This document shows positions 1-10,810 of a stretch of 22,715 bases of DNA, piece by piece. How positions within the stretch are numbered: the stretch's first letter is position 1; each line of letters starts with the position of its first letter. Where the stretch lies: assembly GCA_043826455.1 (NCBI GenBank), contig JBDRQD010000010.1:1-22715 (forward strand), in the 5' to 3' direction. The notes beneath the pieces are model-generated. The model had not been told where the DNA came from and ran no database searches. It worked only from the letters and a program-made list of their open reading frames with translations. Origin of the DNA: Candidatus Bathyarchaeota archaeon (GTDB lineage: Archaea; Thermoproteota; Bathyarchaeia; TCS64). The translations under genes and the position numbers were made by a program.

Positions 1-1167
1 ATGAGCAGGCTGGCCGACTCAACACAGAGGGTGCAGCTGGCCTACTTCAAGAATTTTTACAAATGGTACAGGGTGAATGGTGGAAAATTCGCGGAGTTCA
101 CCCCGGACCAGCTGATAGAGTACCAGAAGGCGGCGGGGAACGGCCAGCAGTACGACGTCCTGGACATGGTTCAGCGGTACGTCACGCAGAGCCAGGGCAC
201 CTTCAACACAAAAAACAGCCGCTATAACAACGTGCGCAGCTTCTTCGTCCACAACCGGGCAGAGCTCCCCAAGGACAAGAACTACACGATACGGCCCACC
301 AGGAAGCCCGTACGTGGAGACCTCACCGTGGAGGAAGTCAAGCAGGTGATCCTGTCATGCGACCCGGCGCACCAGGCGGCCTACATGGTGATGTTTCAGG
401 GCGCCCTGGACCAGGAGACCTTCACATACTGGAACCTCAACGGTTATGGCCCATTAATGGAGCAGCTGGCCGAGTGTGAGAAGCTGTCCCCTGAGGAGAG
501 GGCAATAAAGCTGGAGCTCCCCGGCAGGAAGCACGCCAAGAACAAGGCCCTATACTACACCTTCATCGGCGCCGACGCCATAAACAGCCTCAGAAACTGG
601 CTGGCACACAGGCCTCAGGGGCCAGGCCCCATAATCACGAACCAGAGGAGGAAGGCCATCAGCAAGAGCGACCTCCGCCACTACTGGATTCACAAGCTCA
701 GGCGGCTGGGCCACGTGGACCCTATAAAGAAGGGCACCCGGGCCGACAAGACGGGTAAAGGCCTCCACGAGATGAGGGACGTGTGGAGATCCCTGTGGAG
801 TAAAAGCCCCGCATCCAGCACCGTTGGGGAGTACCTGATGGGGCACCAGATAGATGACCTAGGCTACGATAAGAGCTTCAGGGATGTGGAGTTCTACAGG
901 CGCGAGTACCTGAAGGCGGCGCCCTACCTTCAGATCATGACGGGAGGCGAGGCCTTCAACATGGTGGACGCTGGCGAGGTGGAGAAGCTGCGTAAGAAGG
1001 TAGCTGAGCTGGAGACCCGCCCACCAGAGGGTGAGGCCATGCAGAGGCTCCAGGCACAGCTTCAGGCACAGCAGGCCGTCATTGAGGACATGAGAAAGCT
1101 TATGGGGCCACTTATCGAGAGAGCGAAGGAAGAGGCCGAGAAGGCGAGCAGAGGGCCAGCATCCTGA
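1..1167 (+). CDS. Tyrosine recombinase/integrase (may be 5'-incomplete)
   Basis: Catalytic-box motifs GLHEMR (HxxR), YLMGH and a downstream Tyr (LGYDK); Lys-containing beta hairpin (GRKHAK...YYTFI); C-terminal coiled coil. Confidence 0.9.
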   Translation: MSRLADSTQRVQLAYFKNFYKWYRVNGGKFAEFTPDQLIEYQKAAGNGQQYDVLDMVQRYVTQSQGTFNTKNSRYNNVRSFFVHNRAELPKDKNYTIRPTRKPVRGDLTVEEVKQVILSCDPAHQAAYMVMFQGALDQETFTYWNLNGYGPLMEQLAECEKLSPEERAIKLELPGRKHAKNKALYYTFIGADAINSLRNWLAHRPQGPGPIITNQRRKAISKSDLRHYWIHKLRRLGHVDPIKKGTRADKTGKGLHEMRDVWRSLWSKSPASSTVGEYLMGHQIDDLGYDKSFRDVEFYRREYLKAAPYLQIMTGGEAFNMVDAGEVEKLRKKVAELETRPPEGEAMQRLQAQLQAQQAVIEDMRKLMGPLIERAKEEAEKASRGPAS

Positions 1168-1168
1168 G

Positions 1169-1184
1169 TGCTCCACGTGGAGCA
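1169..1184. repeat. 16-bp palindrome TGCTCCACGTGGAGCA (copy 1)
   Basis: Perfect dyad starting just after the integrase stop (1167). Confidence 0.97.
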
Positions 1185-1297
1185 ATGCTCTCCCGGCCTC
1201 CATGAGGGCACGCACGCACCCTTAGGGGGTATACTAGTAGTATAGGAGAGAGAGGGAGGGCCCCTTTTGGGCACTTTTTCCCCGGCTCCTCCCCACG

Positions 1298-1325
1298 GCT
1301 TAAGGTTACAGTCTTAACCTTAAAT
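1298..1325. other. dif-like tyrosine-recombinase core site gcTTAAGGTTA-CAGTCT-TAACCTTAAat
   Basis: Perfect 9-bp inverted arms around a 6-bp spacer (11-6-11 layout), 130 bp downstream of the integrase; right arm ends in TTAAAT like the XerD arm of dif. Confidence 0.5.
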
Positions 1326-1440
1326 TATGGGTGGATTCTGGTCCTCATGAAGGCTCTCAAAGACCTGGAGGAGAGGGCCTCCCTCGCAGGCCTGATCTTC
1401 TCATCATCTAGGCTAGGGCATTCTACATAAAAAAATGGGG

Positions 1441-1456
1441 TGTTCCACGTGGAACA
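1441..1456. repeat. 16-bp palindrome TGTTCCACGTGGAACA (copy 2, parS-identical)
   Basis: Perfect dyad, intergenic, just past the stop of the minus-strand RHH gene. Confidence 0.97.
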
Positions 1457-1462
1457 GAGGGT

Positions 1463-1606
1463 TTAGGCCTTGATGCGCTCCAGCTCCTCGACCTTCCTGG
1501 TAAGGATCCGCTCAACGAGCTCACTGAGGGGCACGCCGAGCTTCTCAGCCTGGAGCTCCAGCTCCCCACACAGCTTAGCATTCACAAGCACGGGTTTAGC
1601 AACCAT
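1463..1606 (-). CDS. Small ribbon-helix-helix-like DNA-binding protein, 47 aa (not in ORF track)
   Basis: Hand translation MVAKPVLVNAKLCGELELQAEKLGVPLSELVERILTRKVEELERIKA: beta strand, helix, G-x-x-x-S-E-L-V turn, helix; TATA-like element upstream. Confidence 0.7.
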   Translation of the reverse strand: MVAKPVLVNAKLCGELELQAEKLGVPLSELVERILTRKVEELERIKA

Positions 1607-1617
1607 CTCATTCACCG

Positions 1618-1680
1618 TGTGATTACCACTGTAACACAACCGATATAAGGTTTATGATGGTAGCTGTAACACAGTGATTG
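1618..1680. promoter_or_regulatory. Divergent promoter with direct repeat CTGTAACACA x2
   Basis: CTGTAACACA at 1629-1638 and 1664-1673 flanks the TATA-like GATATAAGGTTTAT between two divergent small genes. Confidence 0.6.
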
Positions 1681-1682
1681 AG

Positions 1683-1868
1683 ATGGCGCGTAGCTACCTT
1701 CTAACGGCCAGGGAGAGGGAGATCATCACCACCTACCTGGACAAGGGCGTGGCCCTCGACGGGCTCAGGGAACTCCGACACGTGCTGGCAAACTTGGACC
1801 TCAGCATCATCGACAAGGACAGGGAGCTCATCGACAGGCTCCTCCATGACCGACCCCAGACCCATTGA
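1683..1868 (+). CDS. Small hypothetical helical protein (61 aa; alternative GTG start 1674)
   Basis: ORF MARSYLLTAREREII... with element-like codon usage, downstream of a TATA-like box. Confidence 0.65.
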   Translation: MARSYLLTAREREIITTYLDKGVALDGLRELRHVLANLDLSIIDKDRELIDRLLHDRPQTH

Positions 1869-1944
1869 GAGCCTGTAGCCCAGGCCTCAGCCACCGAGGC
1901 CCGGGAGGAGCTTAAAGCGGAAGCCGCTCTGGGCACCCTTCTAA

Positions 1945-2327
1945 ACTGTTTTTAATGGGTTAAAACTAACAATATCGTTACCCCTAAATTATAATAAAAA
2001 TGTTAATAATATACACAACAACATGATGAAAAAATACAGTACAGGTATAGTACGTACAAATAACATGTACAAAAAATACATTATTAAAATAACGGTTCAT
2101 TTTTCACGTTTAAAGAAACTCATGTATATCTCAGAGCCTCAAAATAACGGGATCAATGGAATGAACCATTCACCCTATGTACGTGTATCCATTTATGACC
2201 ACAATTATCCACATTAAATACCCATGGAATGTCTCACATAAACGAAACAACAGGATATTATCGAGTTCTAAACAGATATAAAGCACTCATGTATTGACAT
2301 GAGTAGGTAAAAAAAGGAGAAAGAAAA
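1945..2327. promoter_or_regulatory. AT-rich non-coding control region (candidate origin plus operon promoter)
   Basis: Sharp AT enrichment; AAAATAACGG x2 (2086, 2141); TATA-like GATATAAAG at 2275-2283 followed by the dyad ACTCATGT-ATTG-ACATGAGT (2285-2304); AGGAGA before ATG 2328. Confidence 0.6.
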
Positions 2328-2477
2328 ATGACCGAAAAAACTGCTTTGACCGCCTGGGTGCCCCGCTCGACGGCCGATCAGGTAGCGGAACGCATCGAAA
2401 AACGCGGATTCGTCTCAGCGAGCGACTATCTGAGGGCCCTCATTCGCGAGGACCTTGAGAAGGAGGGCAAGGTATGA
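2328..2477 (+). CDS. CopG/Arc/MetJ-type ribbon-helix-helix regulator, 49 aa (not in ORF track)
   Basis: Hand translation MTEKTALTAWVPRSTADQVAERIEKRGFVSASDYLRALIREDLEKEGKV; the GFxSxSDYLRALIREDL motif is typical of RHH proteins; ATGA overlap with the next ORF. Confidence 0.85.
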   Translation: MTEKTALTAWVPRSTADQVAERIEKRGFVSASDYLRALIREDLEKEGKV

Positions 2478-3160
2478 CCGCAATATTAGCTACCTTGATC
2501 GCGCCACCGCTGACGGCTTCGGGAAAGGGGCGGGGCCCCGAACGTCTGACAAATGCCTTCTTGGCGGCTGTCCGTGCCGTTCTATGGGTTCTGCTGTCGC
2601 TCCTGCTTCTCCGCGGGTACCACTCCCAGGCCTTTAACATGTTTGTCTGGGCAGGGCTTTGCTCGCTTCTGACTCTGGCTCCACCCGCGATCCGATGCCT
2701 GCGTGAACACTCACCTGAGCGTAACTACCTCATTTTGGGCACCCTTTTCACCGTCCTAGTTCCAGCGCCAATGCGCGCCGCGATCGCCATGGGGCTGTTG
2801 ATCATAGCCGCTGCGTGGTCCTTCGCGGCAACGGTGCGAGATATGAGGGTGGTGTCGGGGCTGCCTCAGGCGGCCCACGATGCTGTGACGGGTCTCCTGG
2901 ATGGGCTGCCCGCTCTGAGGCCCGCCCCGCCCATGATGATGGCCGCCACCGGAATGGAGCGAGGGGTGTTCCACGTGGAACACCGGCCTAGGGGTGCCCA
3001 GGGCTTCAGCCAGCAGCGAGACCAGGGCGGCGACGACGAGGACGGCGACGGGGATCACGCGAATCAGACTGGTTTGAGAGACGGGGCCCTCGTGGCGGGG
3101 CCGAAAGTTCACCACGGATGGAATTTTAAGGCTTGTCAGGCCGGGAGGTGGAGGCCATGA
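2474..3160 (+). CDS. Hypothetical membrane protein (about 4 TM segments, hydrophilic C-tail)
   Basis: Hydrophobic stretches in residues ~30-120; ATGA overlaps at both ends. Confidence 0.65.
   Translation: MTAILATLIAPPLTASGKGRGPERLTNAFLAAVRAVLWVLLSLLLLRGYHSQAFNMFVWAGLCSLLTLAPPAIRCLREHSPERNYLILGTLFTVLVPAPMRAAIAMGLLIIAAAWSFAATVRDMRVVSGLPQAAHDAVTGLLDGLPALRPAPPMMMAATGMERGVFHVEHRPRGAQGFSQQRDQGGDDEDGDGDHANQTGLRDGALVAGPKVHHGWNFKACQAGRWRP
2967..2982. repeat. 16-bp palindrome TGTTCCACGTGGAACA (copy 3; dyad extends to 20 bp, 2965-2984)
   Basis: Perfect dyad inside the CDS (encodes VFHVEH). Confidence 0.97.
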
Positions 3161-3282
3161 CTGAGGCACCACCGCCGGCGCCGATGAGCTGGGCAGAACT
3201 ACTTGAAAGGCTTCTGGAATTGGACCGGGCCTTGGACAAGCTGGAGGCCAAAACTAATGTCGAACACCCAAGTAAAAATTAA
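3157..3282 (+). CDS. Small coiled-coil protein, 41 aa (not in ORF track)
   Basis: MTEAPPPAPMSWAELLERLLELDRALDKLEAKTNVEHPSKN; GGAGGTG RBS; ATGA overlap. Confidence 0.55.
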   Translation: MTEAPPPAPMSWAELLERLLELDRALDKLEAKTNVEHPSKN

Positions 3283-3436
3283 AGTTTATGGCGATGATTG
3301 TCGCCGTGTTTTGCAGGTTCTCAACGAGATAAGAGACAGCTACGCGCCCGATGTCACGCAAAGCGACGTCAAACCCAGCGCCCAGGGCGGGTGGCACGCC
3401 TTTCTCACTGTTTACATGCGGGAGGGCAGACGATGA
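3257..3436 (+). CDS. Small hypothetical protein, 59 aa
   Basis: MSNTQVKIKVYGDD...; GGAGG upstream; stop overlaps the helicase ATG. Confidence 0.6.
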   Translation: MSNTQVKIKVYGDDCRRVLQVLNEIRDSYAPDVTQSDVKPSAQGGWHAFLTVYMREGRR

Positions 3437-5196
3437 CTGAGCCCGAGCTATGTCCCGAATGCGGGGCCTTCATGGTGGGCGGTGCGTGCCCAAAGTGCAG
3501 CCACGGGGCCGAGAAGGCAGGGGATAGTATAATTTCCGGACACACAGGGGGGGTGGAATATATTCCGCTGGAGTTGACCGGCGAGGAGCGCGCAGCGGCC
3601 ACCAGGGAGATGAGCCGAGAGGAGGTATGTAGAATCTACACGAAGACCGTCAAAAACGACACGGCCAACATCCAGGTGCTCTTCTACGGCTTCATCAACA
3701 ACTACACGGAGAGCGATCAGCTCAACTTCAGCATCACAGGCCCTAGCACCACGGGCAAGACCTTCCTACCCCGCGAGGTGCTGCGCCCGTTCCCCCAAGA
3801 GGACATCAACTGGAAAGGCTACACCAGCCCAAAAGCATTTTACCACGACCGGGGCGCCCTCGTAAGGGCGGACGGTAGTGAGCTCCAGCCCCAGCATGAG
3901 TTCGTGAGGGAGGCCCTCAAAAAATGGATGGAGGAGAACCCTAAGCCCACGAAAGGGCAGGGTATCTCCGAGTGGAGGGAGCAGCGCCAGCGGGTCGCCG
4001 CCGAGTTCAAGGACATCTGGGAGGACATCGACAAGAAGCTGATAGTTGACACCCACCAGAAGTTCGAGGTGTTCATAGACCAGCCCAGCGACGCCCTCCA
4101 GCGCGAGCTCCGGCCCCTCCTAAGCCACGACCGCAAGGAGATCGAGGCCAGCATCACGGACCGCACCAAGGACGGGGCGAACCGGACCAAGAAAGTGATA
4201 ATCCGGGGCTACCCAACCACCGTGAGCAGCAGCGTAGCCCACCTACTGGACGAGCAGGAGCAGACCCGGCACGTCCAGGTGAGCCCGGAGACGACCCAGG
4301 AGAAGTTCAGGGAGGCCATAAAGGCCCAGGCCGAGGCGCTGGCCAACCCCGGCGAGTACAGGGACTCTGTAGACCGCGACCCGGGCTTTGAGCTCCTCCG
4401 GCGGCGCATCAGGCTCATCAAGGAGAGCCCGACGGAGACCGTGGTAATACGTCCCGAGGACCGTGATGAAGTATATAGGCGGTTCAAGGACAAGCACCCG
4501 TACCTGAGGCCCAGGCACCAAAGAGACTTCCCCCGGCTGATCGCCTACATCAAGGGGCACGCCCTCTTTAATCAGTGGACCAGGGAGCAGACGCCAGACG
4601 GGAAGGAGATATACGCCACCCGCCTTGACCTGGAGGAGGGATTCAAGATACTTGAGCCCCTGCTGGAGTCTAACGAGCTGGGGATACCACCCCATGAGTA
4701 CGAGTTTTTCAACAAAGTCCTGAAGCCGGCCCTCGAGGCCGCCGAGAACGGGCTGCACCGCAACGACGTGTCGAAGATGTATTTTGACCATTTTAAATCC
4801 CGGATAGGGCAGAAGGCCCGGGACCGCGTGGTTCAGCTATACCTGGAGACGGGGCTCGTGGTGGAGGAGGTGGACCCGGAGAACAGGCGCAGCAAGAGAA
4901 TATATTCCACCCCCCCTGTATGGGAAAAAAATACACAAGCCAGTGAGCCCACGGTCGGCACCGGGACTCTGCCCAACCAGGGCACCCTGGACGACGACCC
5001 CAACATACAGCACCTACGGCGGGTGGCCGAGACCCAGCTAAAACGGGCCGGGTATATGGCCCGGGCCGATTTTTTCAGCTTCATGGATGCGGCCGGGCAC
5101 CCTAATCAAGACGCCGTTTTAGCTATAGTTAAGCTGGAGTCTCGGGTGAAAGTGGAGCCGGGCGGCTTCAGGTGGGTAGAGGAGGAGCAGCCATGA
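3433..5196 (+). CDS. Zn-ribbon + AAA+/MCM-like replicative helicase (start reassigned from 3298)
   Basis: N-terminal CPEC...CPKC; Walker A GPSTTGKT; Walker B-like VFIDQP; DEQEQTR arginine-finger region; RHQRDF sensor-2-like motif; adjacent to the primase. Confidence 0.75.
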   Translation: MTEPELCPECGAFMVGGACPKCSHGAEKAGDSIISGHTGGVEYIPLELTGEERAAATREMSREEVCRIYTKTVKNDTANIQVLFYGFINNYTESDQLNFSITGPSTTGKTFLPREVLRPFPQEDINWKGYTSPKAFYHDRGALVRADGSELQPQHEFVREALKKWMEENPKPTKGQGISEWREQRQRVAAEFKDIWEDIDKKLIVDTHQKFEVFIDQPSDALQRELRPLLSHDRKEIEASITDRTKDGANRTKKVIIRGYPTTVSSSVAHLLDEQEQTRHVQVSPETTQEKFREAIKAQAEALANPGEYRDSVDRDPGFELLRRRIRLIKESPTETVVIRPEDRDEVYRRFKDKHPYLRPRHQRDFPRLIAYIKGHALFNQWTREQTPDGKEIYATRLDLEEGFKILEPLLESNELGIPPHEYEFFNKVLKPALEAAENGLHRNDVSKMYFDHFKSRIGQKARDRVVQLYLETGLVVEEVDPENRRSKRIYSTPPVWEKNTQASEPTVGTGTLPNQGTLDDDPNIQHLRRVAETQLKRAGYMARADFFSFMDAAGHPNQDAVLAIVKLESRVKVEPGGFRWVEEEQP

Positions 5197-6170
5197 GCCT
5201 GGAGGCCTTCTTAGCTGAGTGGTGCTGGCCCGGCCCCTACCGCAGCGTAGGCACCCCATACCAAACATATTACACACACCATGAAGCCGTGGACCGCCTG
5301 GCGGCTCTCATCAACCAGGGAGCCGCCCCCGTCTACATGAGCACCAACCCGTACAGCGAGGACGGCGAGATAGCGCTACTGGACCGCCTGTTTTTTGACT
5401 TCGATTCAAAGGAGAAGATTAGGTACGCCCTGGACGACACCCAGGCCTTCAGTGAGGCCTTAGCCCGGTACTACGGCGTAGGAGCCCTAACCACATTCAG
5501 CGGTAAGAAAGGCTACCACGTACACGTATTCCTACAGGAGCCCGTATATGGGCCCCCGGACCACCTAGCCGCCCTCTACAAGGCCATCCGGGATCTGTTG
5601 GTCAAGGGCTCCACCTACAGGACCCTGGACCCCCAGGCAGCCGACGCCACGCGACTCCACCGGGTCCCCTACTCAGTCCACCAGGGCACCGGGGCCCTCT
5701 GCGTACCCGTGGATCGAGACTTACAGCCATTCACCCTGCACCCCGGCTTCAGCGCAGTCCTGCGTGAGCACGGCATCGGCCCGGAGCTTGTAAGAGTCGC
5801 GGAGCGGCAGCTACACAGGCCCCCAGCTACGCCCCGGGAGTACCGGGGCCCCAAGGGCCGGCTTAGACCCTGTATGGAAGCGGTCTTTGAGGCCAGCGTA
5901 CACGAGGGACCTCACCTCATGAGAGTGGCCGCCGTAGCCGAGCTCCACGCCGAGGGCGCCCGCATCGACGAGATCCTGAGTAGATTCGCCGGCATGCAGG
6001 GCTTCGACGAAGGCAAGACCAGGTACTATATTGAGCACGCCCTTAGGCGCGGCTACAGGCCCTTCAAATGCGCCACGATCCAGAAGCTGGGAGGCTGCCT
6101 GGGCTCAGCGTGTAGGATCTACAGGGGGCCGCCGACGCCAAGCCAGACGCAGGAGGTGGCGGTGAGGTGA
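5193..6170 (+). CDS. Archaeo-eukaryotic primase: PriS-like catalytic domain fused to PriL C-terminal Fe-S-like domain
   Basis: AEP motifs FFDFD, SGKKGYHVH and DxxRLHRVPYS; C-terminal LRPC...HxxR...FDEGKTRYYIEH...PFKCATIQKLGGC...C with four cysteines. Confidence 0.88.
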   Translation: MSLEAFLAEWCWPGPYRSVGTPYQTYYTHHEAVDRLAALINQGAAPVYMSTNPYSEDGEIALLDRLFFDFDSKEKIRYALDDTQAFSEALARYYGVGALTTFSGKKGYHVHVFLQEPVYGPPDHLAALYKAIRDLLVKGSTYRTLDPQAADATRLHRVPYSVHQGTGALCVPVDRDLQPFTLHPGFSAVLREHGIGPELVRVAERQLHRPPATPREYRGPKGRLRPCMEAVFEASVHEGPHLMRVAAVAELHAEGARIDEILSRFAGMQGFDEGKTRYYIEHALRRGYRPFKCATIQKLGGCLGSACRIYRGPPTPSQTQEVAVR

Positions 6171-6469
6171 CGAGTGAGGTAATGGTACCGTTAGCCGAGC
6201 GTCGTCACCGCCTCAACAGCGACGAGATCGAGCCGGTCAGGGATGCCGCCCTAGCCCGGCTTCAGCTTCTCGTGGAGGCCCGGGAGCTCGGGACTATAGA
6301 CGAGGCGGGCAGCCTCTACCGGGTTTGGTTCCGCATCGAGACACATGTTACCCACAAGCCCGCGTACCCACCACACGAGACGTGGATGGAGCTAGCCCAG
6401 CAGCTGTCTAACGGTACCATAAGGGGCTTTGCTCCACGTGGAGCACTCGGTGACCAGGAGGAGGACTAA
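6167..6469 (+). CDS. Hypothetical protein
   Basis: GTGA overlap with the primase stop; upstream GGAGGTG/GGTGAG. Confidence 0.65.
   Translation: MTSEVMVPLAERRHRLNSDEIEPVRDAALARLQLLVEARELGTIDEAGSLYRVWFRIETHVTHKPAYPPHETWMELAQQLSNGTIRGFAPRGALGDQEED
6430..6445. repeat. 16-bp palindrome TGCTCCACGTGGAGCA (copy 4, flanks in reverse orientation)
   Basis: Inside a CDS; 6429-6448 is the reverse complement of 1166-1185. Confidence 0.97.
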
Positions 6470-6471
6470 AT

Positions 6472-6663
6472 ATGCCTAACTTCTTCGTCAAATCTGACGG
6501 CGTGGAGATGATACTCCGGGCCCGGAGCTCGGAGACGGCCATGAGGAGGTTCATGGCAAGATACCCAGCCCTAGCCGAGCTCAACGGGCTATACGTGATG
6601 AAGTGGGGCGGGCCCCCATACTTGGCCTCGCCGCGTGGGGAGATCAGAGGAGGGCGGCGATGA
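6472..6663 (+). CDS. Small hypothetical protein
   Basis: GGAGGAGG RBS; in operon. Confidence 0.6.
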   Translation: MPNFFVKSDGVEMILRARSSETAMRRFMARYPALAELNGLYVMKWGGPPYLASPRGEIRGGRR

Positions 6664-7031
6664 CGCGTAAAAGAGGGCGGTGGAGCCATCCGGTGTTGAG
6701 CACCCCGGGGAGCCGGCTTCTCGATATCTACGTTGAGCTGCCTGAGGGGCAGGCTTCCCTGTTCCGCGTCAACGAGGTCATCGGCCGCTACGAGACGGTC
6801 ACACTCCTCGAGCGCACCAAATATCTCCCCGACAGACGCGGAGTCTGGGACCTCGTCTCATACGAGGCGCTTGTGTGGGTCTCAAGGGACCAGCTCAGGC
6901 CCTTCCAGGAGGAGCTTAGCAGCCTGAGGCAAGACGGGTTTAAGGTCACCGTGGCCGACATCATGACGACCCCGGAGCCTGCAGACAGCGAGCCGGAGGG
7001 AGGCCCGGGTAGGAGGTGGGTCAATAGTTGA
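6660..7031 (+). CDS. Hypothetical protein (start reassigned to ATG 6660)
   Basis: ATGA overlap; GGAGG upstream. Confidence 0.65.
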   Translation: MTRKRGRWSHPVLSTPGSRLLDIYVELPEGQASLFRVNEVIGRYETVTLLERTKYLPDRRGVWDLVSYEALVWVSRDQLRPFQEELSSLRQDGFKVTVADIMTTPEPADSEPEGGPGRRWVNS

Positions 7032-7495
7032 CTGACTGCTTTAGTGGTGCTCCACGTGGAGCAACTGAGGCTACACACAGGCGGCGCCCGGGGCTTTGGC
7101 TGCGAATCAAAACCCGGCTCCGGATCATACGCCTGGCCATGAGGGCTAAGGAGGTGGTCGAGGAGGTTGAGGCCCCGCCCGGCCGCCTAGGGTGGGACAC
7201 CGTCGCCGGCCTCCTCGGGGAGGCCCTGGAGGGCTACTCTACGCGCCGGCTGGACATCGGCCCGGGTGCCGCCATAGGGATGGAGGATCTCGTGGCCGCC
7301 CTGGAGGCTATGGGCTACCCCTTGACTGGCCGGCGCGTGGTCCTGACTGTTGTCCACGGCTACGGGGGACAGTTGACGCCGGACAGTGCTCCACGTGGAG
7401 CAAACCAGGCACATGAGGAGCCCCACAGGCGCGTCAAAACCGGGGCCAAAGAGGCTAGGGTAAATGCGCGGAAGATTGAGGAGGCCGAGGCGTGA
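7028..7495 (+). CDS. Hypothetical protein containing two palindrome copies
   Basis: TTGA overlap; GGAGGTG RBS; APRGA peptide occurs twice. Confidence 0.55.
   Translation: MTDCFSGAPRGATEATHRRRPGLWLRIKTRLRIIRLAMRAKEVVEEVEAPPGRLGWDTVAGLLGEALEGYSTRRLDIGPGAAIGMEDLVAALEAMGYPLTGRRVVLTVVHGYGGQLTPDSAPRGANQAHEEPHRRVKTGAKEARVNARKIEEAEA
7048..7063. repeat. 16-bp palindrome TGCTCCACGTGGAGCA (copy 5)
   Basis: Perfect dyad inside a CDS. Confidence 0.97.
7387..7402. repeat. 16-bp palindrome TGCTCCACGTGGAGCA (copy 6)
   Basis: Perfect dyad inside a CDS. Confidence 0.97.
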
Positions 7496-7599
7496 GCTTT
7501 GAGTCGTTAGAGCGGGTGACCCGGGCCCTCTTCATGGCCATGGCCGTGCTGACCTTCGCGGCGCTCCTAGCCGGCTTCGCTGCGAGGTGGTTAACTTGA
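7492..7599 (+). CDS. 35-aa single-pass membrane peptide (not in ORF track)
   Basis: MSFESLERVTRALFMAMAVLTFAALLAGFAARWLT; GTGA overlap; GGAGG RBS. Confidence 0.6.
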   Translation: MSFESLERVTRALFMAMAVLTFAALLAGFAARWLT

Positions 7600-7724
7600 T
7601 CAAGGAGTTGAGTAAGATGAGTGAAGCAGGCCCCATGGGGGCTTTGAAATCCGCCCCAGAGGTGGGGCGCCACGTTTCCCCAGCCTTGCGGCTGGCCATC
7701 AACAAAGAGGAGGGAGAAAAATGA
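7596..7724 (+). CDS. 42-aa hypothetical peptide (not in ORF track)
   Basis: TTGA and ATGA overlaps at its two ends link the TM peptide to the ATPase gene; GAGGTG upstream. Confidence 0.4.
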   Translation: MIKELSKMSEAGPMGALKSAPEVGRHVSPALRLAINKEEGEK

Positions 7725-9088
7725 AGCCCTACGTGATGCCGATAGTGCTGGGTGACTGCCTGATGCCCATCCAGTTCGGGTACGAGCCCCTGGATAAGAA
7801 GCAGAGGCTCCCTAACCTCACTGGGGAGTACCTGAAGGTGCTGCAGAGGCCCATGAAGCCGGGCCTCATTGAGTTCGTCAGCACCGTTATCATAGGCACC
7901 ATGGGGTACGGGAAGACGGAGTTCGCCAAGTGGGTCGCGGTCAAAATCTCCGAGTTCTACGGAGCCGAGAACGTGAACGCCATCATGAACCGCAGCGCCG
8001 ACCTGAAGACAATCATGGGCGCCATGGACTCCAGGCCGGTGCAACTGCTGTTCCTGGACGATAGCTTCGGGGAGATGCCTCCGGACATCGCCAGGCAGTT
8101 CACCAGGATCAGGCACAGGTTCCACGAGGTCCTGACGGAGGCCGGAAAGCCCGAGTCCGGGGTCATCGTCGCCCTCTTCGGCATCCAGGATATCTACGCG
8201 CTGGATAAGCTGGCCAGGCGGGTCAGCACCGCCATCATCGCGAAGAGTAGCAGCGGCGACAAGTGGTACAAGTCCGACCTAAAGAAGACCTTCGGGGAGG
8301 AGGGCATACGCGAGCTGGACCGGATCACCAGGCGGGTGACGCGCAACTACGACCAGGGCGTCAAGAGCCGCGGCATCATCGCCCTCACCGGCTTCGAGAA
8401 GCCGGGGTTCATCAAGAGCGAGATGGTGGGCGAGGACCTGTACACCGAGATCCTGAGCCCCGAAAAGGATGAGGAGGCACCGCAGGCTGACGCGGAGGTC
8501 TCGGGGATGGAGCTCATCGAGGCCCAGATGCTCGCCCTCAGCGGTGACGCCTTCGCCTTCGACGAGGAGCCCGTCCTCGTGGAGCTGGAGGCTGACAAGA
8601 AGTGGAGGCCCCGGGTCGAGGCGTATAGGAGCTACCTCCGAGGCCGATACCAGGACGACGTCGCCCGAGATCTCGGGGTCACCCAGGGGGCGGTATCCAA
8701 GTGGCTCGGCATGGTCCGCGGGGAGGTGGGCCGCCGCATGGGCGCCGCCTATGAGGTGTACCTGGAAGGCAGCCACAGGCTTAGGCCTGACGTCAGCAGG
8801 GTCACCCGGGATGGCGCCAAGGGCCGCCCTGACCTGGTGGTGGAGCTCAGGGACGGCAGCTACGAGGTGATCAGCGTCAAGTGCTTCAAAAGCGACCGGT
8901 CCATAGTGACCATACCACTAGAGGAGATCCGGCCGGAGCTCAATGAGGCCCACAGGCTGGCCAGGCTGGGGGAGCCGGTGAGGCTCCTGGTCGACTACCT
9001 GAACCTGAAGACAGGCCAGCACGAGGTCACTGAGATCAGCTTAGACGAGCCGCCCCAACGCCTCAACTTCAGGGAATCGGGCAGCTGA
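7721..9088 (+). CDS. P-loop ATPase (Zot/A32/FtsK-HerA-like) - HTH - PD-(D/E)XK nuclease fusion
   Basis: Walker A GTMGYGKT, Walker B LLFLDD, IRH and hhhhQxxxxLDKxxR motifs; HTH QDDVARDLGVTQGAVSKWL; nuclease-like GxxYE...GRPDLVV...ISVKC. Confidence 0.75.
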   Translation: MKPYVMPIVLGDCLMPIQFGYEPLDKKQRLPNLTGEYLKVLQRPMKPGLIEFVSTVIIGTMGYGKTEFAKWVAVKISEFYGAENVNAIMNRSADLKTIMGAMDSRPVQLLFLDDSFGEMPPDIARQFTRIRHRFHEVLTEAGKPESGVIVALFGIQDIYALDKLARRVSTAIIAKSSSGDKWYKSDLKKTFGEEGIRELDRITRRVTRNYDQGVKSRGIIALTGFEKPGFIKSEMVGEDLYTEILSPEKDEEAPQADAEVSGMELIEAQMLALSGDAFAFDEEPVLVELEADKKWRPRVEAYRSYLRGRYQDDVARDLGVTQGAVSKWLGMVRGEVGRRMGAAYEVYLEGSHRLRPDVSRVTRDGAKGRPDLVVELRDGSYEVISVKCFKSDRSIVTIPLEEIRPELNEAHRLARLGEPVRLLVDYLNLKTGQHEVTEISLDEPPQRLNFRESGS

Positions 9089-9146
9089 GCCCCAACATCC
9101 CCCCTTTTACCTGAAATATCACATATAGAATAAGGTTGCCGCATGA

Positions 9147-9386
9147 GGGGCGTTTGGTTCCAGCCAAGGCTAAACGCCCCGTTTTCAACCCCACACCCCC
9201 ACCCCCCAGGCGCCCTCGAGGCAGCGGCGCCAAGGATCCGGGAGGAGGCGGCTCGAAGAGCCGCAGGAGACACAGGATAGGAAGGCCTTCAACACATGAA
9301 GGCCACGGAGGACACCGAGGCCACAGGCGGCCCAGAGCGTGGGGTTGAAAACGGCCCATGGGGTGCCTCCCTGACCGCCCCGGTCA
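9147..9386. repeat. Hairpin-rich non-coding block with perfect 16-bp inverted repeat
   Basis: CCGTTTTCAACCCCAC (9179-9194) pairs with GTGGGGTTGAAAACGG (9339-9354); further stems at 9147-9180, 9248-9264, 9284-9304 and 9372-9386. Confidence 0.75.
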
Positions 9387-9556
9387 AGGTTCAGGGGTTT
9401 ATATAGAGTGAGGGTTTTTCGTGCCTCTCAGGGCCTTCTACGCGGGGGCGGAGTGTCGCGACCACAGAGGCCGCGAGGTCCACGCCTTCCTCAGGGCCTT
9501 CAGCACGTGAGCTGCTTCAACTAGAGGAATACGGTGAAGATCATGGCGAGGCGACT

Positions 9557-9901
9557 CTAAGACACTATGAGCTCCTCAGCCTCCTCCGCGGAGGCCTCCC
9601 CGGGCTGTGTGAGCTCTTTCTCGACCTTCATAAAGCACTGGACGATGGGGGACTCCCTGTCCAGCGTGTAGAGCTCAGCCCTTCCGATCCTCCTGGACAC
9701 CTTGATGGCGCCCTCCTCCAGAAGAACGGGCAGGTACTCGTAGAGGGTACGCTTGGCCATCCCTATGGCCTCCATGACCTCGTTCCTGGGGAAGTCGTGG
9801 TTAGGGTTATCCATGAAGAAGTCCAATAGCCGGAGCTGAGGCGACGCGCCGAACACCTTCAGAAACACCGAGCCGTACTCTTCGCTGTAGATTGACGCCA
9901 T
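9557..9901 (-). CDS. Winged-HTH (ArsR-like) transcriptional regulator
   Basis: LRLLDFF...EVMEAIGMAKRTLYEYLPVLLEEGAI...RRIGRAELYTL wHTH pattern. Confidence 0.8.
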   Translation of the reverse strand: MASIYSEEYGSVFLKVFGASPQLRLLDFFMDNPNHDFPRNEVMEAIGMAKRTLYEYLPVLLEEGAIKVSRRIGRAELYTLDRESPIVQCFMKVEKELTQPGEASAEEAEELIVS

Positions 9902-9991
9902 TCTCTCTATCTAATGCGTTATTAAGACGAAGGTATATAAGTCTGTCACTGTGAAAGGTGTAGTAAGTGACCCAATACGGCGCCCCGCGAT

Positions 9992-10249
9992 ATGACCACT
10001 GAGGAGATCAAGGCCGAGATCTGCTGGAGACTCAAAAGGCGTAACTGCTGGGGCGCCAAATACCTACCAGTGGACAGCCTGGTGGACTGGCTGGGGAAAC
10101 TGGTCAAGGAGGACGGTAAGAAGGTTCACACAGCCATCGAGGACCTGATCAGAGAAGGCCTTGTTATCGGCCACAAGAAGAGGCGCACAATCTCCCTGAA
10201 CCCTCACAGAGTCCGTGAGATTGACAGCCTCCTCGAGGAGCACCTTTAA
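9992..10249 (+). CDS. Small wHTH-like hypothetical protein
   Basis: AIEDLIREGLV...ISLNP wing pattern; divergent from the 9901 gene across TATA-like GTATATAAG (9932-9940). Confidence 0.7.
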   Translation: MTTEEIKAEICWRLKRRNCWGAKYLPVDSLVDWLGKLVKEDGKKVHTAIEDLIREGLVIGHKKRRTISLNPHRVREIDSLLEEHL

Positions 10250-10266
10250 CCGGGGAAGGCTGCCAG

Positions 10267-10282
10267 TGCTCCACGTGGAGCA
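10267..10282. repeat. 16-bp palindrome TGCTCCACGTGGAGCA (copy 7)
   Basis: Perfect dyad 17 nt after the last element ORF. Confidence 0.97.
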
Positions 10283-10594
10283 AGCCACAGCCTGAGCTTA
10301 CCTGCATCTTCTGGATGCAACAATAAGCCTTTTTGTTGCATTGAGGGAGAGAAGGCGCAGAAAAGGCCCATTTCCTCCCCTCTATACTCTACTGCAGCCC
10401 GTGGGCACGTACGAACGACCCAGCACCCGCGCCTCTTCTTCTGGAGAGCTTCCGCTAAGGCCCTCCAGACTACAGCCAGCAGCTCACCTGGACCCTTGGA
10501 GGGCCTGAGAACATGGATTTATACGTAAGTAACCTGATGTAGTAGGCGTGGACCTGAAAAATATGCAGGCAAAAGGGAATACAGGTGATGTTTG

Positions 10595-10810
10595 ATGCCC
10601 TATTGCACAGAGTGTGGAGGTAAGCTGAAATGGGACCCCAAGCTGAGACACTACAGCTGCCAGAGCTGCGGCCTCACATACACTGAAGCTGAACTCTCCC
10701 GAGCCCTCGAAAAGTTGTACGAGAAAAACGACGACGAGGAAGAGAAGAAGCGGCAACGTAACGAGGACTATTTGGATTGGTGGACGAGCTCCAAGAAAAA
10801 GAGAGGTTAA
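10595..10810 (+). CDS. Small Zn-ribbon protein (host)
   Basis: CTECGG...CQSCG motifs; charged C-terminal helix ending YLDWW. Confidence 0.8.
   Translation: MPYCTECGGKLKWDPKLRHYSCQSCGLTYTEAELSRALEKLYEKNDDEEEKKRQRNEDYLDWWTSSKKKRG

Follow-up and report, generated by a model that had tools for sequence, protein, structure and literature searches.

The window analyzed here is a stretch of 22,715 nucleotides from the genome of a Candidatus Bathyarchaeota archaeon (contig JBDRQD010000010.1). It contains an integrated mobile element of approximately 10.7 kb, extending from beyond the start of the contig to an att repeat at positions 10595-10610, followed by host DNA. The element encodes a divergent integrase, a helicase-like protein, a primase, a P-loop protein of 455 amino acids and, close to its right end, two small winged-helix proteins whose genes, named here wh_9557 and wh_9992, are arranged back to back. 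Scattered among these genes are copies of a perfect 16-bp palindrome, one form of which resembles the parS sites of bacterial chromosomes. An earlier interpretation, based on the letters of the window alone (the sequence-only reading), had regarded them as a dispersed set of protein-binding sites. This work deals with these palindromes and with their association with the two winged-helix genes.

A dispersed 16-bp palindrome on the element

The pattern TGYTCCACGTGGARCA matches seven perfect palindromes in the window, the same seven that the sequence-only reading had listed, while none of 100 shuffled versions contained a match. Five of them have the sequence TGCTCCACGTGGAGCA (C form, starting at 1169, 6430, 7048, 7387 and 10267) and the other two TGTTCCACGTGGAACA (T form, starting at 1441 and 2967), the two forms differing at positions 3 and 14. 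Tolerating up to three mismatches did not reveal any additional site in the 22.7 kb (shuffled versions gave a mean of 0.40 and a maximum of 2). The seven sites are distributed over 9.1 kb of the element and none is present in the host DNA, in agreement with the sequence-only reading, except that the element ends at around 10600 and not at 10282, so that the host part amounts to about 12.1 kb and not 12.4 kb.

The source genome (2.95 Mb in 81 contigs, 97.66% complete, 7.21% contamination) has ten sites in total, seven on the window contig and one each on contigs C1, C7 and C49. A reversed control pattern gave no matches in the whole genome, and the CACGTG core alone was not enriched, with 911 occurrences in the genome and 13 in the window contig, close to the estimate from base composition. 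The sequence-only reading had taken the motif for something other than a generic interspersed repeat, and the counts in other genomes support this: the motif was found in 11 of the 31 other genomes of the genus (hereafter congeners), with one to three sites each and 15 in total, versus only one of the 369 genomes searched in the rest of the class. Among all the genomes searched, the source genome is the only one with more than three sites. When IMG/VR was scanned with the C form, 30 contigs with a single site each were retrieved, roughly the number expected by chance according to a rough estimate, and none of the 30 encodes a relative of the 17 window open reading frame (ORF) products used in the searches described below. 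The site system of the window is confined to mobile DNA and far exceeds what chance would give, and a dispersed system of binding sites remains its best reading.

Altogether, 26 perfect sites were seen, 20 of which correspond to the C form. Positions 3 and 14 are symmetric (C with G, or T with A) in all 26, and hybrids are absent even though the pattern permits them. Palindromy stops abruptly at 16 bp, with two copies reaching 20 bp, and no compensating changes were seen in degenerate copies. The strict symmetry at positions 3 and 14 would be explained by a dimer recognizing two classes of sites, and equally by base pairing in a hairpin.

The three additional sites of the source genome (C1:540-555, C7:759-774 and C49:5907-5922, the last one in locus L221) are located in frame within the signal peptide of a secreted protein, where they encode the residues CSTWST. 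These contigs are paralogous, with DNA around the site that is 81-89% identical and the site itself perfectly preserved, and in a fourth paralogue, C8 (L222:4300-4469), precisely the seven codons that bear the site are missing. The clusters code for membrane and secreted proteins without a known function, including a Rce1-like one.

With respect to the genes of the element, site 1 (1169-1184, C form) starts 2 nt behind the stop codon of the integrase gene, and site 2 (1441-1456, T form) is located 7 nt behind the stop codon of gene 1463-1639 and, read like this gene on the minus strand, precedes a run of seven T. Site 5 (7048-7063, C form) lies 17 nt behind the stop codon of gene 6603-7031 and site 7 (10267-10282, C form) 18 nt behind that of wh_9992 (9992-10249), its outer edge coinciding exactly with the end of the homology to gene pairs of other genomes. 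Site 4 (6430-6445, C form), which has around 12 extra flanking letters in common with the C1 site, occupies part of the last 13 codons of ORF 6167-6469. Finally, site 3 (2967-2982, T form) falls in the 3' part of mechanically defined ORFs on both strands and site 6 (7387-7402, C form) in the 3' part of ORF 7028-7495, all with a weak coding signal. The sequence-only reading had placed four sites inside ORFs; this holds for the one at 6430, while the one at 7048 lies behind the stop codon of a well-supported gene and the ORFs around those at 2967 and 7387 show a weak codon-position signal.

Five of the seven window sites are within 25 nt of a stop codon, with gaps of 2, 7, 24, 17 and 18 nt, and none is within 25 nt of a start codon. 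In a random placement test, done with a set of twelve genes that we chose for their clear codon-position signal or their homologues, only 5 of 100000 placements reached five sites within 25 nt of a stop. Such proximity to stop codons points to a role at gene ends more than to the segregation, SMC loading or packaging considered in the sequence-only reading. Using A+T-only octamers as a crude promoter proxy, none was found adjoining the window sites, with the exception of the T run at 1427-1436 next to the site at 1441, and this is evidence against promoter operators.

Sites 1 and 2 are located at the opposite extremes of the 295-nt gap between the convergent integrase and 1463-1639 genes, and the 256 nt between them (1185-1440), bordered by a C-form and a T-form site, are non-coding. 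A two-site unit was also observed in relatives, in which a C-form site is followed, after some 95 nt of A+T-rich sequence that includes a T run, by a T-form site (L021:1603-1730, L027:9891-10016, L186:504-630 and L205:1618-1742). This unit may correspond to an origin, to a promoter or to a small RNA, and the spacer 1185-1440 together with sites 1 and 2 is possibly its counterpart in the window. In the Logan contigs of the probable source run, breaks with adapter letters at 2918 and 2984 flank site 3, and the graph branches at 10297-10325, just to the right of site 7.

Association of the site with a pair of winged-helix genes

The product of wh_9557 (9557-9901, minus strand) is a protein of 114 amino acids with an ArsR/BigR-like winged helix, and that of wh_9992 (plus strand) has 85 amino acids forming a winged helix and a C-terminal helix, with no Pfam family. 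Each is a candidate for reading the 16-bp site or for being the partner of the protein that does. The divergent promoter region between them (9902-9991) has two back-to-back TATA-like boxes and no 16-bp site. It is 88% conserved over seven loci and in relatives harbors a 14-bp palindrome of its own, slightly altered in the window, which could be the operator of the pair.

The products of 17 element ORFs were searched against 16 site-bearing loci, 13 from congeners plus C1, C7 and C49. Only wh_9557 and wh_9992 had matches, in six of the 16, and in these six pair loci the site is 8-17 nt behind the stop codon of wh_9992 and 15-48 nt behind that of wh_9557. Both flanks of the pair carry a site in two congener contigs, G020:C164 and G026:C231 (where the second site is around 170 nt behind the wh_9557 stop codon), and in the metagenome loci L152 and L153. 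Several element-encoded proteins had been named in the sequence-only reading as possible readers of the site; among them, those encoded at 9557 and 9992 travel with it, and no other gene of the element does. Of the 32 genomes of the genus, 21 have wh_9992 and 24 have wh_9557. The two genes also tend to remain together: the wh_9992 profile retrieved 58 metagenome loci, of which 54 keep both in divergent orientation, while the remaining four are cut by a contig end no more than 165 nt upstream.

To relate the presence of the site to the divergence of the pair, unique gene copies were grouped by identity to the window copy, and a site with up to two mismatches was counted if located within 77 nt of the stop codon. 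It was found in seven of 11 copies of wh_9992 with at least 64% identity (five of these sites being perfect) and in five of 58 below that value; for wh_9557, the figures were nine of 16 with at least 70% identity (five perfect) and three of 57 below. As a reference, random 80-nt stretches of the same loci contained a site in 132 of 19974 draws, real sites included. The site-bearing copies below these thresholds all belong to one distant subclade, with around 35% identity for wh_9992 and 52% for wh_9557, in which the site is found at the same two positions and whose sister copies have decayed remnants on both sides. According to these comparisons, the site is an old component of the two-gene module, fixed in position, in two lineages, and is decaying in others.

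Neither the 58 metagenome loci nor any congener locus had relatives of the integrase, the helicase, the primase or the 455-amino acid protein beside the pair. Conversely, the motif is absent from seven stretches with relatives of the primase (40-45% identity; G074, G035, G042, G073 and contig C25 of the source genome, G000) or of the 455-amino acid protein (31-38%; G016 and G040), which also lack any palindrome of at least 12 bp in two copies, and a search for related loci anchored on the primase gave nothing in genome contigs or viral contigs. The expectation that homologous elements would carry the motif was therefore only partly right: relatives of the primase and the ATPase come without it, and it is the loci with a homologous winged-helix pair that have it.

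Some of the related loci deserve mention. At L117 (G042:C198), an element from a different family that has a primase relative of around 37-40% identity, an unrelated 10-bp palindrome is present three times (810, 2549 and 3594) in 4.7 kb and may represent a parallel site system. An MlrC-like gene of G020:C164 (L024, 9810-11019) carries in its 3' end an insertion of about 1.2 kb that consists of the pair and two sites alone. Besides a replacement 3' end for the gene, the insertion includes a third copy of this end in inverted orientation (74% identity over 156 nt), and looks like a remnant of a larger element. In L046, L055 and L057 (G025:C60, G012:C141 and G020:C7), which belong to a diverged lineage of the pair, a tRNA-like gene was identified by eye about 30 nt behind the wh_9992 stop codon, in which case the pair would lie right at the end of elements that have tRNA genes as their integration sites.

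With regard to the proteins themselves, no Pfam, PHROG or NCBIfam family was found for wh_9992, and NCBIfam and PHROGs were negative for wh_9557 too. The wh_9992 profile matches 243 sequence clusters at E <= 0.001, and the 120 clusters listed are all devoid of Pfam domains, almost all of them being without a name or annotated as hypothetical. The NCBI names of homologues of one of the proteins are consistent with an assignment to Bathyarchaeia. Its structural model (pLDDT 92.8) consists of three helices, a beta wing and a C-terminal helix. Foldseek gave weak matches, the best with an E value of 5.2e-3, to Pex, PadR-type regulators and a Wadjet subunit; AspA (4rs8) appeared at rank 46 (E 4.9e-2, TM 0.61), which reflects the generic fold of winged-helix proteins, and wh_9992 and AspA do not match in sequence. 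In VIA comparisons, many winged-helix proteins, among them Rpa2, SqrR, TubR (Z 9.8, rmsd 2.5, 78 residues), Pex, Z-alpha, RTP (Z 9.0, 77 residues) and F-93 of SSV1 were tied at Z scores of 9-10, which speak for the fold only. For wh_9557, the profile reached BigR (3.2e-4) and TubR (7.2e-3), PADLOC returned weak Csa3-type winged-helix matches, and in the model (pLDDT 83.8) further helices are added to the winged helix at both termini.

The predicted complex of wh_9557 and wh_9992 had a score of 0.89, compared with 0.00 for the best control. This value was reached by 116 of 157 solved complexes and by two of 215 mismatched pairs, counts that hold roughly for a model which, like this one, was built with our own alignments. 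The different runs had at least 77% of the contacts in common, and the pLDDT of the partner was 90 or higher. The modeled interface involves the N- and C-terminal parts of both chains and is away from the presumed recognition helices. The model supports the formation of a heterocomplex by the two proteins.

Possible functions of the sites

The reading that we favor, with a probability of around 0.4, is that the palindromes are recognition sites of wh_9557/wh_9992 and act as boundaries at gene ends, through roadblocking or looping. The palindromes would be double-stranded recognition sites for the two-protein module at the right end of the element, a module that in relatives is flanked by a site just behind both of its stop codons, with further copies placed, in the window element, at the 3' ends of genes and gene blocks. 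Each site would be bound as a symmetric unit, either by a homodimer of one partner or by a 2:2 complex, and once bound would constitute a boundary stopping transcription between blocks or inward from the host. Bound sites may also bridge into loops, and this binding would keep the integrated element insulated and quiet. Both the role of the two proteins as readers and the effect of their binding are what we infer from the placement of the sites and their association with the pair. It is also possible, although we consider it unlikely, that an archaeal counterpart of parS/KorB-type systems exists here, in which a heteromeric complex of winged-helix proteins from two uncharacterised families nucleates, in the absence of any ParB, on a site that has converged with a bacterial centromere, and from there bridges, folds, silences and perhaps segregates the element.

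Several observations weigh against the function of the sites as boundaries read by the pair. Most copies of the pair lack the site, as indicated by the five of 58 and three of 57 copies in the groups of lower identity, and seven of the 15 perfect congener sites are away from any pair; two site-bearing genomes, G017 (93% complete) and G023 (87%), have no detectable pair at all. Co-occurrence at the genome level is weak, with wh_9992 present in ten of 12 site-bearing and 11 of 20 site-free genomes, which are moreover kin. The palindrome in the promoter of the pair differs from the 16-bp site, and a heterodimer suits a perfect palindrome poorly. There is no TATA-like box near the sites and none of the seven is near a start codon, so that a role as classical promoter operators is not supported. 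The roadblock or looping role, in turn, is a purely inferred one.

The resemblance to parS raises the question of a true ParB-parS system, with ParB encoded in an unassembled or highly divergent part of the genome. According to Table 1 of PMC4368675, the T form coincides in every letter with parS2 and parS3 of P. aeruginosa, so the sequence-only reading was correct in calling it a Pseudomonas-type site, and the literature on this string concerns bacterial ParB. The fragmentation of the genome in 81 contigs would leave some room for a missing gene. However, the models PF02195 (ParB_N) and TIGR00180 gave no matches at E <= 0.01 in a genome that is 97.66% complete, while in 14 control genomes they were positive in 11 and 12, respectively. 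The C form, to which 20 of the 26 perfect sites belong, had no match in the literature searched, and what the site accompanies is a winged-helix pair and not a ParB. Neither is there a ParA-type (deviant Walker A), TubZ or ParM-like gene among the 28 ORFs of the window; the ParA/MinD-like and SMC/Rad50-like genes of the source genome, including four AAA_31 matches, are all on other contigs. We consider such a system extremely improbable, and the ParB reader outside the window suggested by the sequence-only reading was not found. The sites might still function as centromere or condensation sites that dispense with a motor or use one from the host, with a winged-helix binder that tethers, compacts or partitions an episomal form of the element. 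The identity of the T form with a functional centromere of bacteria is consistent with this idea, as are the alignments of the wh_9992 model with TubR and AspA and the match of the wh_9557 profile to TubR. AspA is, according to PMC5120986, a dimeric winged-helix protein acting on a palindrome, and StbA is reported to function without a plasmid NTPase. The word depth of 11.8 over most of the element, compared with 9.3 in the host flank, would be a weak additional hint. On the other hand, the structural matches are ties within a generic fold, and neither a ParA, TubZ or ParM-like gene in the element nor a ParB in the genome was detected. Known centromeres are clustered arrays or lie upstream of operons, whereas the sites studied here are dispersed and behind stop codons, and small remnant insertions in host genes retain them with no need for partition. 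A centromere function of this kind thus seems doubtful to us.

A different explanation, and again one that we find rather unlikely, would make the palindrome a conserved stem-loop, with a 6-bp stem and a 4-nt loop, functioning in the 3' ends of transcripts (in their stability, processing or termination) or in single-stranded DNA and possibly bound by the winged-helix proteins. The location of the sites directly behind stop codons and the symmetry of positions 3 and 14 in 26 of 26 sites are as base pairing would predict. The core hairpin folds at a modest -7 to -9.4 kcal/mol, the site at 1441 is followed by seven T, and inverted repeats with arms of at least 6 are present behind the wh_9992 stop codon in 20 of 67 unique copies (7.7% of random stretches), some of them of unrelated sequence. 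But inverted repeats behind wh_9557 are at background level (four of 68), all 16 letters are conserved, including the loop, the palindromy ends sharply at 16 bp, and degenerate copies do not show compensating changes; no Rfam family matches at the sites. An intrinsic terminator-like hairpin is not supported, since a T run directly after the stem-loop exists only at 1441, one of the seven window sites, and it is inconsistent in congeners. More improbable, in our opinion, is that the palindromes serve for recombination or module exchange, the integrase or a different enzyme using them, integron-like, as crossovers to shuffle, invert or delete element blocks and the winged-helix cassette. In five contexts, the homology between copies of the pair ends at the outer edge of the site, with one-sided breaks at the site edge in L024 versus L025, L030, L034 and the window, in L027 versus L031 and in L026 versus L024. 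In G030 the sequence behind wh_9992 breaks off at the first letters of the site. The lack of precisely the seven site codons in C8, the branching of the Logan contigs to the right of site 7 and the attC-like location of the sites behind ORFs would also fit. Against this, the att repeat of the element is a different sequence, and no site-to-site joint was found in the Logan contigs. The insertion in G020 is bounded by copies of the 3' end of its target gene, 190 and 266 nt beyond its two sites, and its five empty alleles have no site; at this locus (G020:C164), the only one with empty alleles, a cassette inserted site by site is ruled out. To our knowledge, an arrangement of 6-bp arms and a 4-bp symmetric center is also unlike the cores of tyrosine recombinases, which counts against such a function. 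A 16-nt recombination motif of Sulfolobus conjugative plasmids would be a possible analogue, for which the literature searched gave no paper.

Comparison with known systems gives partial similarities in several directions. ParABS also relies on dispersed, perfect 16-bp palindromes, some of them within coding sequences, and the T form is identical, but in our case neither ParB nor an adjoining ParA was found, the predominant form carries C/G at positions 3/14, and the sites are at gene ends of a 10.7-kb archaeal integrated element and linked to small winged-helix proteins. KorB is a ParB-family protein with many operators at promoters in IncP-1 plasmids. As with KorB, a single palindrome is spread across a whole mobile element (seven sites over 9.1 kb), partly far from promoters, and would be read by an element-encoded coordinator; unlike KorB operators, no site is near a TATA-like box, and the likely reader is a candidate winged-helix pair. 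StbA of R388 is reported to be a small DNA-binding protein with dispersed sites, which regulates several operons and acts in segregation without an NTPase of its own, but it is bacterial, has a fold of a different family and binds promoter repeats. AspA of the Sulfolobus plasmid pNOB8 shares with our case a small archaeal winged-helix protein and a palindrome on a mobile element, with a TM score of 0.61 between wh_9992 and 4rs8. According to PMC5120986, AspA is a dimeric protein of about 90 residues with one 23-bp site upstream of its own operon and adjacent ParB and ParA. Here there are seven 16-bp sites, located behind stop codons of genes whose neighbors are neither ParB nor ParA, and a second winged-helix partner. 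The replication terminator protein RTP with its Ter sites, like other protein roadblocks, offers the precedent of a winged-helix dimer that halts a moving enzyme on short symmetric sites, although the match of wh_9992 to RTP is a tie among generic winged helices, and neither polarity, nor a Ter-like double site, nor a link to replication was seen. Finally, integron attC sites and REP elements are palindromes just behind ORFs, attC in a unit with a tyrosine recombinase, but they are longer, imperfect and variable in sequence, and the insertion analyzed here is not bounded by sites. Overall, the system would work most like the dispersed palindromes of KorB and StbA and like AspA on pNOB8, being a member of none of these groups.

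As far as we know, almost nothing is known about the control and inheritance of mobile elements in Bathyarchaeia, an abundant and uncultured group. The site in its two symmetric forms and two small proteins from families with at least 243 sequence clusters and without a Pfam domain constitute a testable trio, a compact module found repeatedly at the ends of integrated elements. Should the proteins indeed bind the site, archaea would have a new cis/trans pair that serves to insulate genes or to maintain DNA, and this pair could become a small tool for archaeal genetics. In that case, the letter-for-letter match with a bacterial centromere would clearly illustrate convergence and would caution against deducing a ParB from a parS-like string.

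The integrated element and its other genes

The element has the features of an integrated mobile element: an empty allele, end repeats and a tyrosine integrase beside attL. Its right end is approximately 320 nt past the last palindrome, at the attR repeat (10595-10610), which matches in 13 of 16 letters the attL on contig C78 (164-149) and rebuilds the first codons of a zinc-ribbon gene (10592-10810). This gene is the target of integration at its 5' end, the element copy supplying the replacement start codons. In the empty allele of the congener contig G029:C225, the DNA of C78 (reversed, ending at base 149) joins position 10596 of the window. The att repeat being a different sequence, the palindrome was ruled out as an att core. 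At the left end, the first 55 bases of the window and the end of C78 are 92.7% identical, with four mismatches, and the frame of the integrase continues for 15 codons into C78. From this overlap, the end of C78 is probably a strain variant of the element, which would explain why the contig breaks at the start of the window.

The integrase gene (1-1167, plus strand, with its first 15 codons on C78) encodes a divergent tyrosine recombinase-like protein with a weak PHROG integrase match and, by eye, catalytic-looking motifs. The sequence-only reading had assigned two small ORFs to the ribbon-helix-helix class; ORF 2328 gave weak matches of the NikR and ParD-antitoxin type and ORF 1463 none. The P-loop helicase-like protein (3430-5196, plus strand) has a weak AAA_22 match, and the primase (5172-6170, plus strand) combines PriS-like and PriL-C-terminal-like parts. 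The 455-amino acid P-loop protein (7721-9088, plus strand), with a helix-turn-helix around residues 311-334, has homologues elsewhere without the site, and its C-terminal stretch contains a candidate PD-(D/E)xK nuclease-like motif, identified by eye. The source genome has a second primase gene at C25:4906-5832 (42% identity) and a second helicase-like gene at C67:32837-34173 (64% DNA identity), and these loci lack the site and seem to belong to other elements of a related kind.

The same study includes two RNA runs, which yielded no contigs on the element. In Logan contigs of run X1 the word depth was 11.8 at 2984-10325, 10.3 over the first 2.9 kb and 9.3 in the host flank; these depths are not copy numbers and provide weak evidence. 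Finally, in an element with a GC content of 60%, positions 1940-2330 form an A+T-rich island with a GC fraction of around 0.3 and no site inside, a candidate for an origin or a promoter hub.

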